A stretch of DNA of 64,000 nucleotides, from assembly GCA_963719515.1 (NCBI GenBank), contig CAVRCJ010000010.1:480001-544000 (forward strand), in the 5' to 3' direction. Below the pieces are notes generated by a model. It searched no databases. It had not been told where the DNA came from and was given only the letters and a program-made list of their open reading frames with translations. Source of the DNA: an uncultured cyanobacterium (GTDB taxonomy: Bacteria > Cyanobacteriota > Cyanobacteriia > CAKZMO01). The translations under genes and the position numbers were made by a program. Each line of letters starts with the position of its first letter. Position 1 is the first letter of the stretch. Below are positions 16,459 to 49,244 of the stretch, in pieces.

Positions 16459-16599
16459 TCAGGACGGCTTCTCTAAATGTAGGCGATCTATCCAATCTTC
16501 TACCAGTTGAGTCATGGTCTTGTCCCTCTCTTTTGCAATCGCCCTAAGCTTTTGCAATCTTTTAATAGAGACTCTTAAATTAAGCTGTCCTTTTGCCAT
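16459..16599 (-). CDS. 46-aa ribbon-helix-helix-like protein (below ORF-track cutoff)
   Basis: Manual translation: MAKGQLNLRVSIKRLQKLRAIAKERDKTMTQLVEDWIDRLHLEKPS*. Beta-strand (LNLRV) followed by two amphipathic helices. Confidence 0.75.
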   Translation of the reverse strand: MAKGQLNLRVSIKRLQKLRAIAKERDKTMTQLVEDWIDRLHLEKPS

Positions 16600-24752: not shown

Positions 24753-26043
24753 TTGACATCCTCCCCGCCCTGAAGAGCGGGGATTCCCGGTCTGCCCACT
24801 AGGTGGACTCCCGACGGGTGGACGCCTCAGCGCGGATTGCCCCTGACGAGGTCTTATGCCCGCTCCGCGTCCGTTTAGAGTCTCGGGCTAGCTCCAGCCC
24901 AGACGTTTCAATATTGCGGCTAGCATTGCCGTCCCGGTCTTGGGTTTTGCCGCAACCAAGGCAGACCAGCTCGCGCACCGACAGCTCCAGCTTGCCCCAG
25001 CGGTAGCCGCAGTCGGCACACTTCTGGCTAGTCGGCTCCCACCGGCTGATGACCGATACCTCGCGTTCCAGTATCATCGCGGCCTTGGCCTCACACATGG
25101 TTCGCAGTTCACGCCAGCCCTGCTGCGCAATAGCGCGGGCCAACTTGCGGTTGCGGACCATGCCGGACACGTTCAGGTCTTCAATAGCCACAACGCTATG
25201 GTTGCGAATCAGCCAGGTCGAGAGCTTATGCAGAAAATCCTTGCGGATGTCCCGCTGCTTGGCCTTTAGCTTAGCAATGCGCAGCCGGGTGCGCTCACGG
25301 CGCTTCGACCCCTTGAAGCGCCTATTCAGCTTGCGCTGCTCACGGCGTATCTTGCGGCCAATGCGGTCGTAACCAGGAGACTCAACGCGCTGGCCGCTGC
25401 TGAGCACCGCGAACGTCTTGATACCCAAGTCCACACCCACGCTTTGGTTCTCAGCGCGAATGTGGACTGGCTGCACTTCGACAACGAAGCTCAGAAGATA
25501 GCGGCCTGCTCTGTCCTTGATGACGGTGACGGATGACGGCTCAGACGGCAGCGGCCTCGACCAGCGCACCTTGAGGTTGCCAATTTTGGCTAGATAGACC
25601 TTGTCGCCCTTGAGCGAGAAGCCGCCCTTGCGGAATCGCGCCGACTGGCGGTTGTCTTTGCGCTTGAACCGGGGCGGCATCACCTTTGGTCCTTTGCGCT
25701 TGCCTTTGAGCGAATCAAAGAAGTTTTTGAACGCTACGCCCAAATCGGCGATGGACTGCTGCAGCGGGATATTTGATACCTCGCTCAGCCACTGGCGCTC
25801 AACCGTTTTCTTGGCCTGCGTGATGCAAGCCTTCTGAAGGTCGCCATTCTTAGGCAGCGAATCCGACTCCTTGCACAGTGCTAAGGCGTCGTTCCACACG
25901 ACACGGCAGCAGCCAAACAGCTTGGCTAAGCTGATCTGCTGTCCGGACGTGGGATAGACCCGGTACTGGTAGCGGCACTTCATAAATACAATTGTCCTAC
26001 AAAAGCCGCCCTAAAGGGCGGGGCTTGAGACCCAGTTTTTTTG
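24753..26043 (-). mobile_element. IS200/IS605-family element B (tnpB only)
   Basis: On the minus strand: target TGAC, left end CAAAAAAACTGGGTCTCAAG plus hairpin, right end GAATCCCCGCTCTTCAGGGCGGGGAGGATGTCAA. Confidence 0.88.
24799..25983 (-). CDS. tnpB: RNA-guided endonuclease TnpB
   Basis: YQYRVYP HTH, GVDLG, AIEDLNV, CADC/CLGC and QDRDGNA. Confidence 0.94.
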   Translation of the reverse strand: MKCRYQYRVYPTSGQQISLAKLFGCCRVVWNDALALCKESDSLPKNGDLQKACITQAKKTVERQWLSEVSNIPLQQSIADLGVAFKNFFDSLKGKRKGPKVMPPRFKRKDNRQSARFRKGGFSLKGDKVYLAKIGNLKVRWSRPLPSEPSSVTVIKDRAGRYLLSFVVEVQPVHIRAENQSVGVDLGIKTFAVLSSGQRVESPGYDRIGRKIRREQRKLNRRFKGSKRRERTRLRIAKLKAKQRDIRKDFLHKLSTWLIRNHSVVAIEDLNVSGMVRNRKLARAIAQQGWRELRTMCEAKAAMILEREVSVISRWEPTSQKCADCGYRWGKLELSVRELVCLGCGKTQDRDGNASRNIETSGLELARDSKRTRSGHKTSSGAIRAEASTRREST

Positions 26044-28782: not shown

Positions 28783-29008
28783 GGGACGGAGGGCGTTGAC
28801 GCTTTAGCGCTCTTTGCCGCTCATTCAGAAATTAATTCGCGCCGGACCCTTTCGAATCGCGTAGCAGCCTACCGCTATGGGGAAAGTGGACGGCATACTA
28901 TTCGGGCTGTCATTCTCTCGGAGCTACAGTCGCTACAAGCGTAATTGAACAGTGACGCGGCAGTCCCTAATCTCAGCGTAGCGGATTAGGGAAGGATAGC
29001 GGCGACCG

Positions 29009-29149
29009 CTAGGGAGCAATCTTAGGCAGTCGCCTCACGTACTCGCGAATTACTAAAGCGATACTCCAGCCCTTGTTATCTGCGTAAGCTTTCAACTTTT
29101 CAAATTCTTCATTGGTCATTCGTACTCTCAACATCTTGTCTAGCGGCAT
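29009..29149 (-). CDS. 46-aa ribbon-helix-helix (CopG-like) protein (below ORF-track cutoff)
   Basis: Manual translation: MPLDKMLRVRMTNEEFEKLKAYADNKGWSIALVIREYVRRLPKIAP*. Confidence 0.8.
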   Translation of the reverse strand: MPLDKMLRVRMTNEEFEKLKAYADNKGWSIALVIREYVRRLPKIAP

Positions 29150-29177
29150 ACTGCTACAACCGTGCTACAATAATTGC

Positions 29178-30422
29178 ATGCTAACACGACGTATCACCTA
29201 CCGGCTATATCCGACCAAACGGCAGGATAGTAAGCTGTTTGAGTGGAAACGTTTGCATTGCTATCTATACAATGCAGCGTTAGCTGACAGGCGCGACATG
29301 TATAAACGCTGGGGCATCAGTGTTGACTATTATGCTCAGCAGAATTGTTTGCCAGCGTTCAAGGCAGAATGGCCTGAATTTGCTGAGCTTGGCAGTCATG
29401 CGCTGCAAGCGACATTAAAGCGGGTTGACTTCGCATTTGAGCGGTTTTTCAAGGGACTTGGAGGATATCCAAAGTTTAAGGGAAACCGCTTTTATGCTGG
29501 CTGGACATATCCGTGTAAGGCAGGCTGGAAAGCGCTCACCGAGGGCAAGCATGGTAGCTTGAAACTGTCTAACCTAGGCGTTATCAAGATGCGCGGCAAC
29601 GCCCGCACATGGGGCACCCCTACCACTTGCACTATCTTCTGTCGGAATGGCAGGTGGTATACCAGCATCACGGTCAAATGCAGCCCGGTGCGGGAGACAG
29701 GGACAGGCGCTATCGGTGTGGACCTGGGCTGCAAAGATGCCATATCGTTCTCGGACCGCATCAAAGAGCGCAAGCCTCAATTTATCGCCGAGGGCGACCG
29801 GGCCGTTAAGCGACTGAGCAAGTCCCTGCAAAGGAAGCGCCGCTCTGACCGGCGTGGTGGGGTGCGTGGCTCTCGCAGATGGAAAGCAGCGCAACAAAAG
29901 ATTTCTAGTCGCAAGCGAACAGTGAAGCGCCAGCGCGAGGATTGGCTTCACCAGGTAACCAGCAGCATAGTACGCGATAACAGCCTAGTTGCTGGCGAAC
30001 AACTCAACGTCAAGGGCATGACTCGCAAGGCCCAGAAGGGTAAGCGGAAAAAGCAAAAGGCCGGTCTCAACCGCTCTATCTTGTCGGTAGGGTTTGCCAC
30101 GATTGGCAAGCTGCTATCCTACAAAGAGGCTGAGGCCGGTGGATTCTATGTCGAGTCCCCTACCCGGCAGCTTAAGCCTACTCAGCGGTGTGCTGTGTGC
30201 TGGCAGACGACGCCCAAGACAATGGCTGAGCGCACTCACGTATGCCAGCACTGCGGTCATGTTGAGGGCCGCGATACCAATGCTGCCCAGGTCAATCTGA
30301 TTTGGGCCAAGGGGCAGGAACTGTCCTCAAGCCGTCGAGTATCAACCTCTACTGATTGCGGAAGCATGAAGCAAGTCGGTGCGTTGAAACGTGCGAAACG
30401 TCTAGCTCAGCCTTGCGGCTAG
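29178..30422 (+). CDS. tnpB: RNA-guided endonuclease TnpB
   Basis: TYRLYP, GVDLG, AGEQLNV, CAVC/CQHC and GRDTNAA; start MLTRR. Confidence 0.92.
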   Translation: MLTRRITYRLYPTKRQDSKLFEWKRLHCYLYNAALADRRDMYKRWGISVDYYAQQNCLPAFKAEWPEFAELGSHALQATLKRVDFAFERFFKGLGGYPKFKGNRFYAGWTYPCKAGWKALTEGKHGSLKLSNLGVIKMRGNARTWGTPTTCTIFCRNGRWYTSITVKCSPVRETGTGAIGVDLGCKDAISFSDRIKERKPQFIAEGDRAVKRLSKSLQRKRRSDRRGGVRGSRRWKAAQQKISSRKRTVKRQREDWLHQVTSSIVRDNSLVAGEQLNVKGMTRKAQKGKRKKQKAGLNRSILSVGFATIGKLLSYKEAEAGGFYVESPTRQLKPTQRCAVCWQTTPKTMAERTHVCQHCGHVEGRDTNAAQVNLIWAKGQELSSSRRVSTSTDCGSMKQVGALKRAKRLAQPCG

Positions 30423-30629
30423 ACGTAGTTCATATTCTTGCTGCTTCCCCTATCCCAAATGGGCAAAATTCGCAGCGGCTATTGTATTGAATTGGGCTAA
30501 CGCTCCTACACAATTTAGCAGGATTCTACCCTTTGCTGAGGGAAGCGTCCCGTCCCTCCAGTAGAGGTTGTTTGAAAGCCTTTCCCAAACAACCTGTTCC
30601 CATCGTTAGACAAAGCGCAGCCGCTGCTA

Positions 30630-40076: not shown

Positions 40077-40267
40077 AATTGGTCTAATTCAGGCAAGGCC
40101 TGTAGGCGCGTAGCGTGGCGTGCCCCCTGCCAGCAATTCTCATCTTAGAAAACATAAGCAACTGACCGTTTGACTACGCTTTTTACCCCACCCACGATTG
40201 AACTCTAGCGCGGCAGTCCCTAATCTCAGCGCAGCGGATTAGGGAAGGATAGGGGACGGCTTCGCCG

Positions 40268-40678
40268 TCAATCAGTCGGTGCATCTTGGCGGTGGATGTA
40301 TTGTTTAAGCATTTCGATTGGGGCTCCGCCAGCGCTAGCGACATAGTAAGCGTTGGACCAAAACGCTTTATGTCCCCCGTAGTGTTCTTTGTACTGCTGG
40401 GGAAATTCTTTTTTCATGGTGCGGCTGGTTGCGGCTTTAAGGCTGCCAACGAGCGCAGAGATTGAGTTGCGTGGATGGAAGTCAACAAGTAGGTGGATGT
40501 GGTCCGCTTCCCCTGAGAACTCCAGCACCCTACACCCCATCTTCACGCAGACCTGAGAAATCATTTCCTCAATCCTAGCAAGCATTTCAGAGTTGATGGC
40601 TTTGCGCCTGTAGTGCGTTACAAATACTAGGTGCAGGTGCACGCTAAAAACGCTGTGACTTCCTTTTCTTGTTGGCAT
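40268..40678 (-). CDS. tnpA: IS200-family Y1 transposase TnpA
   Basis: HLVFVTHYRR, DHIH (HUH motif), FWSNAYY and catalytic-helix QYI; start MPTRKG. Confidence 0.93.
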   Translation of the reverse strand: MPTRKGSHSVFSVHLHLVFVTHYRRKAINSEMLARIEEMISQVCVKMGCRVLEFSGEADHIHLLVDFHPRNSISALVGSLKAATSRTMKKEFPQQYKEHYGGHKAFWSNAYYVASAGGAPIEMLKQYIHRQDAPTD

Positions 40679-40707
40679 TTGGGCTAGGTGTAGGCTATTA
40701 TGGGCAC

Positions 40708-41612
40708 ATGGTAACAACTCGCCGCGTCACTTTCAAGCTGTATCCGTCCGCCACTAAGGCGGCGAAGCTGCATGATGCGCGGAAGTTGCACCAGTATCTG
40801 TACAATGCCGCACTAGCAGATCGCCGCGATATGTATAAGCGGTGGGGCGTCTCGGTGGACTACTTTGCTCAGCAAAACTGTTTGCCAGCATTTAAGAGAG
40901 AGTGGCCTGAGTACAAAGGGCTAGCCAGTCACGCCTTGCAAGCGACTCTAAAGCGGGTTGACCTAGCATTTCAGGGCTTTTTCAATGGCCTGCGGGGTTA
41001 CCCCAAGTTCAAGGCATTCCGCTACTACAGAGGTTGGACATATCCTTGCAAGTCAGGATGGAAAGCCCATACCGATGGTACAAATGGCTACTTGGAGCTG
41101 AGAGATTTGGGGTTGCGCATTCAGATGCGCGTTGGCTTCACCAGGTAACCAGCAGCATAGTACGCGATAACAGCCTAGTTGCTGGCGAACAACTCAACGT
41201 CAAGGGCATGACCCGCAAGGCCCAGAAGGGTAAGCGGAAAAAGCAAAAGGCCGGTCTCAACCGCTCTATCTTGTCGGTAGGGTTTGCCGAGATTGGCAAG
41301 CTGCTATCCTACAAAGAGGCTGAGGCCGGTGGATTCTATGTCGAGTCACCTACCCGGCAGCTTAAGCCTACTCAGCGGTGTGCTGTGTGCTGACAGACGA
41401 CGCCCAAGACGATGGCTGAGCGCACTCACGTATGCCAGCACTGCGGTCATGTTGAGGACCGCGATACCAATGCTGCCCAGGTCAACCTGATCTGGGCCAA
41501 GGGGCAGGAACTGTCCTTAAGCCGTCGATCCACTAGCTCCACTGATTGCCGAAGCATGAAGCGCCTAGCGGAAATGAAACGCGCGAAACGTCTAGCTCAG
41601 CCTTGCGGCTAG
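40708..41612 (+). pseudogene. tnpB: tnpB pseudogene (internal deletion and nonsense mutation)
   Basis: Relative to element C, about 346 bp including RuvC-I is missing at 41131/41132, causing a frameshift; TGG>TGA at 41391. Confidence 0.9.
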
Positions 41613-41743
41613 ACGTAGTTCATAGTGGACTGAAAGTGCAGGCCAATTGAGAATACCCACTAGAGTGGGTCAAGGCTTCTAGACTGGGTTCTATGCAGCA
41701 GTGCGTTCTCCAGGAGCGTATCCGGAAAACTTCGCTGAGCCGC

Positions 41744-45787: not shown

Positions 45788-46917
45788 ATGATGAAAATCA
45801 AGCACTTTATCAACCTCCATAAGGGCACAACAGGCTTGTTTGTGTTTGCCCTGATGGTGCTTTACGGCAATTTCACAACCGCAGCTTGGATCTACCTCGC
45901 CCTCCACGGCACCTATGGTTTACTGTGGCTCATCAAAGATCGGCTCTACCCCGACAAAAGCTGGGAGCAGAGCATTTCCCTGATCAAGGGCATTGTGCTA
46001 TTTGGGGTGCTCGGCCTGTACTGGGCTGCGCCCGTTATTTTAGCTAGTTCGTGAAAGCCCCGCGCTGTATGCGCAGCATCAGCGTCGGGATGTAAGCGAG
46101 CGAGTCGAGGTGCGCCCTTGACTGGATGCCGAAGGCGGCAATTAAGGGCAGCGCCGAGGCGAGCAAAGGGTACAATTGAACCAAGCTCAAACTATTTCAT
46201 GGCGGCGGCCTGCTATCGTGACACAAACGTACAGCCCTTGGCTGGTGAACAGTGCAGACGGTAGAAAACGTAGCTGGAAATTGAATACTCGTCACTGTCT
46301 GGGGTTGGTCATTGCCTGGACATTAAACAAATCGCCTGTCGATGGGATCTAATCGGGGTTGCACGGCTTGCTGCGTAACTAGACAGGACCAGATGAAGCA
46401 GGATACCTTCTTGCGCGGCATCCATTAAATTGTGGTGCGTGAGCCAAGAAGCCCGCGCTCTATCTAAAAGATGAGCGTCGGGAGTATGTCACTGACGCAG
46501 AGGGTCCAACCGTCCTCCGCCCTAATTGCCGTCGCCGTCTCCCTAAACCTCTTGGGCATTTTCCTGCACTACGCAAGCGATGCTCAAAAGTATTTCACCC
46601 TCAAGTACCAGAAGGGGTTGATCACTGAGGGCCTGTTTGCCCGCTGCCGCAACACCAACTATCTCGGCGAGATTCTGATCTACGCCTCTTTCGCGATGCT
46701 GGCGATGCACTGGCTGCCCTTTGCCATCTTGGCTGGGTTCTTTGCGCTGGTATTCCTTCCCAACATGCTTAAGAAAGACAAGTCTCTGTCTCGCTACCCA
46801 GAGTTTGCGGCCTATCAGCGTCGCTCGGGGTTGCTGTTCCCCAAGCTATGGGGGGTTCCGGCGGACCCAGCCGGTTCTGTGCCTAAGGCCTCTGAAGAGA
46901 CAGTCGCACCGGGCTAG
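45788..46917 (+). pseudogene. DUF1295/steroid-reductase/ICMT-like membrane protein interrupted by an insertion
   Basis: The 5' half (INLHKG...YWAAPVIL) and the 3' half (SDAQKY, RNTNYLGE) fuse in frame when 46044-46492 is removed. Confidence 0.85.
46044..46492 (+). mobile_element. Non-autonomous ORF-less IS200/IS605-type element E (449 bp)
   Basis: Related hairpins CCCGCGCT..AGCGTCGGG at both ends; follows TTAG, ends in TCAC, no target-site duplication. Confidence 0.85.
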
Positions 46918-49244
46918 CCCCAGGCTCTGCGAACGCTGTAGGTGGGAAAAGTTCCGTAATGTTTGGCCCAGGGCATCTGGCCCACATAGTCGCAGCAAAA
47001 CGCCGTTTGCCCTTCAGAGGCGGCGATCGCCGCAAAGGCCTGGCTCGCGTAGACCTTGCCGGGGGGAGTGACGGGTTCAATCCGGGCTGTGTGGTTGACA
47101 TGGGTGCCCACGTAGCTGACCCGCCCGGTCAAGGGGTCCACCTTGCTGGAGACCGGACCGGCATGCAGGGCAATTCTCAAATTGAGGTCAGCGGGAAGGC
47201 CCTTGCTGCCCCAGTCTACCCGCTGCACCAGGTCGCACAGGTCTAGGGCCGCCTGCCCCGCCTGCTCCACGGTGGTGAACACCAGATAGAGGGCATCTCC
47301 CCAGGTGTTTCTCGTTAAGGGCCTGTAGCCAGGGGAATCGAGAAGCTGCGCTACAGCCCCCAAAAAATGGTCGGCAAAGGGCAGGAACTGCTCCTCGCTG
47401 AGGTGGGTATAGTTCACCACATCGGCAAATAGCAGTGCTCTCAGCACCGGGTCCATTGGCTTTGGGGGGCACGTTGAGGGGGATGTAGCCTGAGAAGACG
47501 GGGCCTGAGAAGATGTAGCCTGAGAAGACGGGGCTCGAGATGGCAGGTGAACCGGCTGGGGGTCAGCCAAGGCCGCCAAATCGATCACCTCCACCGTTTC
47601 GTTCCACTGCTGCCAAAGATTTACCGTATTGGCAGTCCCCTCCAAGCTGCCGAGCTGCCCGTCCCAAACCGCCAAGGGCACGAGATCACTGCCCAGCTGG
47701 TTCGCGCGAATCTTAGCGAGCCCGTGGAGCAGTCGATTGGAATAGTCGTAGAGGGTAGGACTTTGCTGCACGCTCTGCTCGGAGGCCACCACCACTTCCC
47801 TAGCCTTACCCATCACCTGCTCAAACCGCTTTTCCCACTGCCCATCCGGCTGCCGATACAGGGCGTCCCGAAGACAGGACTCTAGGCCGTAAGGCAGCAC
47901 AATATGCAGCTCTCCCTGCAAAGACTGAAGCGCTTCCAAAAACAAAATATCTGCCCCACAGGCCGCAGACGCATAGCCAAAGTGCGCGTCCAGATGCTGG
48001 AGGCGATCGCGAATTGCGCCGTACACCTTAGGCGCTAGCTCAGACGGGAACCGGGGCTGTTGGCGGTTGGGCGGGTCAATGCGATGACCGCAAAACATCA
48101 CGACGCGAGGGATATGGAACCATCGCTTAATTCGCGCTAGGTCAATTCCCAAATGCTGACCCAGCAGCAGCGCATTACGGCGGCTAGAGCTGAAATCTCC
48201 AAATCGCCCTTGCCCCTGTGCCACCGCCTGACCATAGAATTATTCCGCCGCTGTCAAATCCTTCAAAATTAGCGCCGCTTCTCCAAGCGTTGCCAGCAGC
48301 CAGTAGGCATCTCCGCCGGTGCGCGTCAGAGCAGCGAGCTGAGTCAGACAGGTTGCTTTGATCGCCCGCGCCAGCTGCCGGGCCTGCTCTAATTGATTCA
48401 TCAGACAGGCCATCGTCGCGGCGTTAATTCCGACCCAGATGCTGCCGGTCAGGGCATAGGCCTGCTGATAGCGCTCTGCCGCTAGGGCTAAGTGGCGCTC
48501 TGCCGCCGCTGGGGTAAAGGCCTGGGACCAGAGATCTTTGTGGGTGCGTGCGAGCAGACCGACGGTCTCTTCGTCTTGGTGTCCCGCCTGCACCAGCGCA
48601 GTCAATAGGGTATTGGCGGCGTCAGTAGAGCCACTGCGGGCCAGCGACAGCGACAGCAGCTGCTGTAGTCTGAGGTCGTTTGGCCATTGCTTCAGCCCCT
48701 CGCTCAGCACGTCGTAGGCCATTAGCGGCTCGCCAATTTTTAGGCTGGCCTCTCCCAGCGCCCGATAGACGGGGGGCGCTTGGGGGCTGAGTTTGATGGT
48801 TTCTCGCTGCAGAGAAATTAGGGTTGCTAAGTTCACCTCCGACGATTCTTTTAGCCTGTTGAGCGCCAGCGTCACCTCTGGCGATTCGGCCAAGGCCTCG
48901 TCTTGAGTCGCGCTCGCGTGCGTCGGCATTGGGCGCGCCGTTTCCGGGTCTGTGGCGCTAGAGCCGCCATCGATACGGTAGCCCAGCGCCAGCAGCACCT
49001 TAAAGACAGTCAGCGCTGCGTTACGCTGCCGCTGCTGCGATCGCTCGTTGAGCTGAGCGTAGGGCAACAGGTTGGGGTGGGTGCGGGCAGCAGAATCATA
49101 GACGCTGTCGTAGCGCCAGCCCTGGTGGAAGTGGTCTTTACTCCACAGGCTATGAACCGTTTGGGCCACCAGATCAGCTAACGCTAACTGCTCTGGCGCT
49201 AGCACAATATTGTCAATATCAACGGGCTGGGGATTGTACCTCAA
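46914..49244 (-). pseudogene. RyR-domain / TPR (TRAF-binding-like) / SLOG-like / class III nucleotide cyclase with one in-frame stop
   Basis: ORFs 48240-49244 and 46914-48224 are in the same frame, separated by TAA at 48240-48242. Motifs: GWRY..HPNLLPYAQL, FCGHRID..ACGADILF, LFADVV, NTWGD, LRIALHAGP, ARIEP. Confidence 0.75.
47482..47540. repeat. 15/30-bp tandem repeat in an interdomain linker
   Basis: (GATGTAGCCTGAGAA GACGGGGCCTGAGAA) repeated twice, second copy imperfect; encodes APSSQATSSQAPSSQATS. Confidence 0.85.

Follow-up and report, generated by a model that had tools for sequence, protein, structure and literature searches.

An Arc-like ribbon-helix-helix gene and an 11-bp-spaced candidate operator beside tnpB in a transposase-less IS605-family element of a cyanobacterium

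We analysed a 64,000-nucleotide stretch of an uncultured cyanobacterial genome (hereafter, the window) and focused on element C, a transposase-less, non-autonomous IS605-family transposon with a small ribbon-helix-helix (RHH) gene divergent from its tnpB. A Raf1 gene in the window likewise points to a cyanobacterial host. The element has three copies with defined ends and a target motif, an intact tnpB, an RHH gene under selection and a repeat specific to RHH-bearing loci, and in the loci examined the RHH gene and tnpA never share the slot. Most likely, two RHH dimers bind the repeats, cover the -10 boxes and repress tnpB and probably also the RHH gene, with the TnpA of sister element D or G mobilising the element in trans. 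An earlier note on this DNA had taken element C as the best candidate for a new system in the window. It is a new example of a known arrangement and no new class of TnpB system, because the accessible text of two reports shows the architecture to have been catalogued in 2023 (10.1101/2023.11.20.567912) and characterised experimentally by Moon et al. (10.64898/2026.09.24.754181). The parts of element C are as follows.

28950..30433, + strand: element C, a non-autonomous TnpB element of the IS605 family (IS1341-type), delimited by three copies with differing flanks
28945..28949, + strand: transposon-adjacent motif TTGAA, the target site just outside the left end, preceding 3/3 copies
28964..28992, + strand: left-end subterminal hairpin common to C and its sisters D, F and G, from single-stranded DNA folding and conservation across the sisters
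29009..29149, - strand: Arc/CopG-like RHH gene of 46 aa (RHH-C), divergent from tnpB, from the ORF, sub-threshold Pfam matches, an AF2 model and selection
29152..29159, + strand: repeat copy 1, TGCTACAA, candidate operator half, from the sequence and an 11-bp periodicity confined to RHH loci
29163..29170, + strand: repeat copy 2, TGCTACAA, candidate operator half overlapping an extended -10-like box
29178..30422, + strand: tnpB, 414 aa, with OrfB_IS605, HTH_OrfB_IS605 and Cas12f1-like_TNB above the Pfam cut-offs and the expected motifs
30398..30433, + strand: right-end hairpin (30398-30426) and terminal TTCAT, from folding and copy comparison

The 1484-bp element, which has a sulfatase gene as its left neighbour, ends at the points (28950 and 30433) where the match among the three copies in the genome stops; the copies are 98.5-100% identical and their flanks are unrelated. 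TTGAA, GTGAA or TGGAA is found before the left ends of sisters D, F and G, and TTCAT is the right end of all three C copies. The folds of the two end hairpins have modest z-scores (-1.6 for the left end and -1.9 for the right). In keeping with IS200/IS605 elements, the ends carry asymmetric subterminal hairpins and a conserved 5' target motif in a multicopy element with unrelated flanks, and the tnpB encodes the RuvC D-E-D triad and a zinc finger. tnpA is absent inside the element, and none was found within 700 bp. As in the family, the right end would also supply the 3' terminus of an omega-RNA scaffold, in overlap with the last part of tnpB. Motif inspection of TnpB-C found the RuvC residues D182/E274/D366 and both CxxC pairs all present, and the gene is intact.

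The divergent ORF had been called RHH-like by the earlier note, and its reading frame, predicted fold and selection bear this out. RHH-C matches Pfam families of the RHH clan (NikA-like, ParD) below threshold and NCBIfam models only below their cut-offs, and RHH_1 is matched at E<=0.01 by 10 of the 18 homologs aligned. In the AF2 monomer model (pLDDT 84.6), two helices follow an extended N-terminus; the model's top PDB matches are MazE, VapB, Arc, ParG and CopG, of which not one reaches E<=0.001, and sequence search and Atlas comparison agree with an RHH-type fold. RHH-C presumably forms a dimer, as the family does. A protein homology search returned two matches, the method being too insensitive for 46 aa, and one plasmid homolog is annotated as 'CopG family transcriptional regulator', with no tnpB annotation beside it. 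Among close pairs of tnpB-linked RHH homologs, pS exceeds pN in 45/46 (means 0.77 vs 0.13), and RHH-C compared with five homologs gave pS of 0.76-1.03 and pN of 0.26-0.32. The gene is real and under purifying selection; a chance ORF was rejected since pN is far below pS.

The RHH start and the tnpB ATG (29178) are separated by a gap of 28 bp (29150-29177). As described earlier, TGCTACAA occurs twice in this gap, at 29152 and 29163, with a spacing of 11 bp, and the second copy overlaps TACAAT (29166-29171). The latter is part of an extended -10-like box, TG-n-TACAAT (29163-29171), that ends 6 nt 5' of the tnpB ATG, and on the opposite strand TATTGT (29172-29167) could serve as the -10 of the RHH gene, whose start codon abuts copy 1. 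In the window this paired pattern is seen a single time, and 0/100 shuffles reproduced it. Across the 5.28-Mb genome the paired operator has three matches at <=1 mismatch, all in C copies, and six at two mismatches; the scan at <=1 mismatch, which found only element copies, gave no sign of host targets.

We profiled the repeat across RHH loci as a 7-mer with <=1 mismatch (6-of-7) within 32 bp adjoining the RHH start. Among the matches listed, the 11-bp-spaced repeat is present in 23/42 non-redundant RHH-tnpB loci, and still in 15/32 once the seed loci were removed; these counts include kin, so the loci are not independent. Any other spacing reaches at most two loci, and 0/200 shuffles attained the observed value. 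The remaining 19 of the 42 lack an 11-bp direct repeat at 6-of-7, and several of them carry inverted sites. The repeat was found in 0/28 non-redundant RHH-less relatives of TnpB-C (drawn from 44), and it is tied to the presence of the RHH gene.

The RHH-less relatives have a TAnnnT that ends 6 nt (13/28) or 7 nt (6/28) 5' of the start codon, and the TACAAT of C occupies the same position. Because this position is kept in RHH-less relatives, a leaderless tnpB is suggested, and the tnpB-C transcript is probably leaderless, starting from the extended -10 box under the second repeat. The promoter position therefore constrains part of copy 2, which leaves copy 1 as the half specific to RHH. In a strict sigma-70 promoter scan the -10 site of C was absent from the output, and the promoter is only consensus-like.

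A survey upstream of tnpB, as had been proposed, found an RHH-tnpB linkage far above chance. In the window's genome, 28 of the 31 RHH profile matches are divergent from a tnpB and lie <=130 bp from its start, and the 76 tnpB 5' ends comprise 28 with a divergent RHH gene, nine with a divergent tnpA, 39 with neither and none with both. The 28 loci represent three families, A (9 copies), C (3) and E (16), the last absent from the earlier note, and not 28 independent events; each family has a tnpA-bearing sister. The profile, built from 18 RHHs, was searched in 401 genomes of the phylum and matched in 100 of them, so that the arrangement is commonplace both here (28/76 tnpB starts) and in the phylum (100/401 genomes).

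The survey sample comprised 30 loci from the profile search, 75 further matches listed (191 weaker ones lay outside) and the earlier loci. Of 137 profile matches, 126 were retained (83 of them non-redundant) after removal of 11 that lacked a start codon or an anchor, lay at a contig edge or contained N. Among the matches listed, 64/126 RHH loci are divergent to a tnpB by BLAST and at least four more by Pfam, and tnpA was found within 700 bp of the RHH gene in 0/126. These counts support a single slot that, across the loci examined, holds either RHH or tnpA. Searching from TnpB-C gave a divergent RHH in 4/61 loci, and RHH is therefore a minority state in the TnpB-C clade. On a tree of TnpB N-terminal regions (49 rows, one long row of which, L126, is probably mislabelled), the RHH state needs 10 changes, four of them forced by well-supported branches.

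The RHH at locus L084 is 88-90% identical to that at L017, and their operators match at 21/22 positions; the L084 TnpB is only 25% identical to TnpB-C despite this near-identical RHH. The cassette therefore moves between TnpB families. The RHH tree has 39 columns and is poorly resolved, and was used solely for this pair.

Three further observations concern the slot and the RHH family. At locus L001, an A-type RHH-tnpB element directly adjoins a tnpA-tnpB element of the C clade. Another tnpB family in the window (24799-25983, - strand), with seven full-length copies found, has a slot without tnpA or RHH. RHH homologs at L069, L072-L079 and L081 occupy one conserved chromosomal position, between ORFs of 133 aa and 270 aa, that recurs in several related genomes and has no IS genes close by; they are possibly domesticated or an unrelated host regulator.

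Two features elsewhere in the window allow element C to be compared with elements A and D.

16459..16599, - strand: RHH gene of element A, homologous to RHH-C, with TGCCTAC at 11-bp spacing upstream
40203..41623, + strand: sister element D, with the same ends as C and without the 11-bp repeat, from sequence comparison and Pfam

Elements A and C had been called unrelated. This stands for their TnpBs, which are 24% identical, as the earlier note's claim of divergence implied; it fails for the RHH cassettes, which are homologous (22% identity) and both fit one profile, and an independent origin of the two was rejected on that ground. Recurrence in two families had been taken as the mark of an under-described class of TnpB systems. 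The recurrence instead reflects a single RHH family that has spread among TnpB families rather than convergence, and the architecture was catalogued in 2023.

Sister D bears the relation to C that was claimed for it, with left ends 90% identical over 59 nt and an intact, divergent tnpA (40678-40268) in the slot; its tnpB, however, has lost about 350 nt internally and carries a frameshift. The idea that tnpA and the RHH cassette are exchangeable cargo held in that they are alternative occupants, but a clean swap between C and D was rejected, C being a recombination mosaic within tnpB. A tract of ~650 nt inside tnpB (window 29680-30330) is nearly identical to the tnpA-bearing sister G (G000:C10:164534) and to D (window 40708-41623), and its flanks are divergent. 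In tnpB-C, nt ~500-1150 are 94-100% identical to G, compared with only 55-82% for the first 500 nt and 80-82% for the last 100 nt, and the other two C copies show the same mosaic pattern. The shared tract of C, D and G thus bespeaks apparent recombination or gene conversion inside tnpB. The cleanest RHH/tnpA swap is seen, judging by the alignments, in family E (G000:C3:50300-52000 and about 16 other copies), the third RHH-tnpB family, whose TnpBs are 96-98% identical over their full length and carry either RHH or tnpA. Family F (G000:C10:179147 and four other copies) has the ends of C and neither tnpA nor RHH, with ~100 bp from the left end to tnpB.

Arc-like proteins beside TnpB were described by Zedaveinyte et al. 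(10.1101/2023.11.20.567912 / PMC10690162), whose accessible text reports hundreds of homologs beside TnpB, Cas12k and homing endonucleases, anticipates repeat arrays, direct or inverted, and describes no functional assay of them. Their Arc-like ORFs include those of IStrons, which have a group I intron, whereas C has none; Rfam gave 0 matches in the window copy and 14 other loci, with no group I intron found. An IStron identity was rejected for C since there is no group I intron and no room for one in the element.

Moon, Zedaveinyte, Wiegand and Sternberg (bioRxiv 2026, 10.64898/2026.09.24.754181) report, in the text accessible to us, that Arc binds the IS605 intergenic promoter by ChIP-seq, including in elements with arc and tnpB only, and that it represses a tnpB-promoter reporter in a manner requiring three beta-strand residues; some homologs gave no binding, and the transposon-associated Arc clade has 362 members. 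Their elements and C have in common a small RHH gene inside the IS and divergent from tnpB, and the arc genes they describe are often <=50 aa and unannotated, as is compatible with the 46 aa of RHH-C. Like those repressors, C has a small stand-alone gene with an RHH fold (its structure matches being individually non-significant), selection on it as a protein (the 45/46 pairs above) and a paired motif over the boxes of a candidate promoter in the gap. Sites over promoter boxes, DNA contact by three alternating beta-strand residues and a two-dimer model are also predicted alike for C. Their main examples are from Clostridia, with arc beside tnpA, oppositely oriented motifs and contacts N5/N7/T9, whereas C has direct repeats at 11 bp and predicted contacts M6/R8/R10, and RHH and tnpA never occur together in the loci examined.

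The strings 'cyanob' and 'direct repeat' are absent from the main text of Moon et al., and its supplements may list cyanobacterial members. The cyanobacterial direct-repeat form, the tnpA/RHH exclusion and the strand-operator co-variation were not found in the literature searched (titles and the starts of abstracts, with few subscription journals). Element C is predicted to extend Arc repression of IS605 elements to cyanobacteria.

Other known arrangements resemble C in part. According to the accessible text of Ziemann et al. (PMC9938897), cyanobacterial cas12k genes of type V-K CASTs have divergent Arc_1/Arc_2 genes, and cas12k and cvkR mRNAs are leaderless. These systems share with C a small regulator divergent across a short gap from TnpB or a TnpB-derived effector, but they have Tn7 genes and CvkR is of the MerR type, whereas C has a canonical TnpB in a 1.5-kb IS without Tn7 genes. 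The identity of a CAST regulator was rejected, as RHH-C is paired with a 414-aa TnpB and the element spans just 1484 bp, with a sulfatase gene at its left. The archaeal RHH/MazE-TnpB loci, proposed as toxin-antitoxin pairs in the accessible part of Altae-Tran et al. (PMC10691335), likewise have an RHH gene adjoining tnpB. There, tnpB is downstream of the RHH gene and the RuvC-III Asp is changed to His, neither of which holds in C, and this type was rejected because D366 is intact and the genes are divergent. IS1341-type tnpB-only elements mobilised in trans, and PATEs with omega-RNA, are known from Meers et al. (PMC10055086); C resembles them in having ends common to autonomous and non-autonomous sisters, and the text accessible to us describes no RHH there.

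In the mechanism we favour, two dimers of RHH-C, predicted to be of the Arc type, would sit on the two copies of TGCTACAA, one helical turn apart on the same face of the DNA. Binding over the extended -10 box would block RNA polymerase and repress tnpB. The RHH gene is probably repressed by its own product, and this negative autoregulation would give a brief pulse of TnpB and then low steady levels. Element C would be moved in trans by the TnpA of sisters D or G, and the module of RHH gene, operator and promoter would move between elements via recombination, in the case of C inside tnpB.

It is improbable that the RHH is instead an antitoxin-like inhibitor of the TnpB protein or the TnpB-omegaRNA complex. 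RHH-C does resemble antitoxin RHH domains, and a co-folding model is given for the archaeal RHH/MazE-TnpB (PMC10691335), but in that clade, as far as the accessible text goes, tnpB lies downstream of the RHH gene and RuvC-III is rearranged, whereas the genes of C are divergent and its D-E-D is intact. What makes such a role at the protein level unlikely is that RHHs of nearly the same sequence are paired with unrelated TnpBs, or with none: those at L084 and L017 adjoin TnpBs just 25% alike, and the same RHH family is also found on elements without any tnpB.

There is likewise little probability that the RHH autoregulates its own gene only, or that the repeat simply arose when a -10 box was duplicated, with tnpB uncontrolled. 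The tnpB -10 box is directly overlapped by copy 2, the duplication is missing in 28/28 RHH-less controls, and repression of a tnpB promoter was measured by Moon et al. (10.64898/2026.09.24.754181, in the text accessible to us); these outweigh two points in favour: the TACAA half of copy 2 is under constraint as a -10 box in RHH-less loci too, and copy 1 lies against the RHH start codon.

Activation of tnpB or omega-RNA transcription by the RHH is very improbable, since the candidate site sits on the -10 box, where bound regulators are known to repress, and the Arc homologs assayed by Moon et al. repress, even though certain RHH proteins such as AlgZ, cited in the accessible text of the same report, activate. 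An untranslated ORF with a repeat due to chance, for which the failure of RHH-C to reach the Pfam cut-offs might speak, is largely refuted already and exceedingly unlikely given that pN is far below pS, that profile matches occur in a quarter of the genomes (100/401), and the repeat statistics from shuffles and RHH-less controls.

Co-variation between the beta-strand and the operator, a test that had been proposed, was compared across 80 loci, leaving out three non-mobile chromosomal homologs. Two variable, outward-facing beta-strand positions predict operator similarity once the remainder of the protein is corrected for, with coefficients of 0.50 and 0.49 (p 0-0.016 by permutation within clusters). 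This signal is not clean, as position 5 (0.40) and the inward-facing position 7 (0.38) predict it nearly as well, and physical linkage to the adjoining DNA therefore probably explains part of the co-variation. The cleanest contrast comes from locus L063, where the protein body is 75-78% like R-E-R proteins and 47% like C, and the strand M-R-R and operator core GCTAC are those of C. R-E-R loci have CGTAC in 4/4 and S-R-R loci GATAC in 6/7, R-S-R loci have GCTAC in 4/9, and R-N-R loci are mixed. Any strand-operator code is therefore partial.

We regard as possible, though doubtful, that the cyanobacterial Arc cassette is a plug-in repression module replacing tnpA, in which a beta-strand/operator code prevents cross-talk between families. 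Such a cassette would travel from one TnpB family to another, unrelated one, and to mini-elements that encode a guide RNA but no protein. Its two variable beta-strand residues would diversify jointly with the 11-bp-spaced operator, in a code that pairs hydrophobic-R-R with GCTAC, R-E-R with CGTAC and S-R-R with GATAC, and each co-resident element family would control its own nuclease. If true, nature would hold a library of orthogonal 46-aa repressors, together with a transposon control system specific to each family. The natural candidate repressor-operator pairs described here allow an RHH recognition code, and specificity across families, to be put directly to the test.

RHH genes were also found in mini-elements without tnpB. 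Seventeen such loci share a non-coding stretch of 330-400 nt that runs from the promoter to an IS605-type right end.

Mini-element loci: L082, L085, L093-L095, L098, L099, L103, L105, L118, L119, L122, L123, L125, L131, L186 and L189, and 56 of the metagenomic loci L205-L284

Three copies in one genome (G304) have different flanks, and no TnpB remnant was found in comparison with 21 TnpBs. Compensatory changes occur in 18/43 predicted pairs of the mini-element RNA, and the fold is favoured on the sense strand; an Rfam search with this RNA gave no relevant match. In metagenomes, 56 of 80 pattern matches belong to the family; not one of these 56 lies where a tnpB ends, and an RHH is present within 60 bp of 12. 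The mini-elements thus exist both with the divergent RHH gene and without it, and may be long guide-RNA cassettes that bear an additional 5' domain.

The window's genome has no member of this 17-locus RNA family. It holds a single-copy mini-element (G000:C6:326251-326900) with an RHH gene, ~300 nt of non-coding sequence and an RNA unlike that family, whose right end is A-like and whose left end resembles a tnpA sister at contig C16. Other mini-elements with an RHH gene and non-coding sequence, differing in ends and RNAs, are those at L065/L088, L158, L182/L185, L068/L106 and L108/L133/L187. Elsewhere in the window (46914-49244, - strand), an adenylate/guanylate cyclase gene adjoins a RyR and TPR-S gene.
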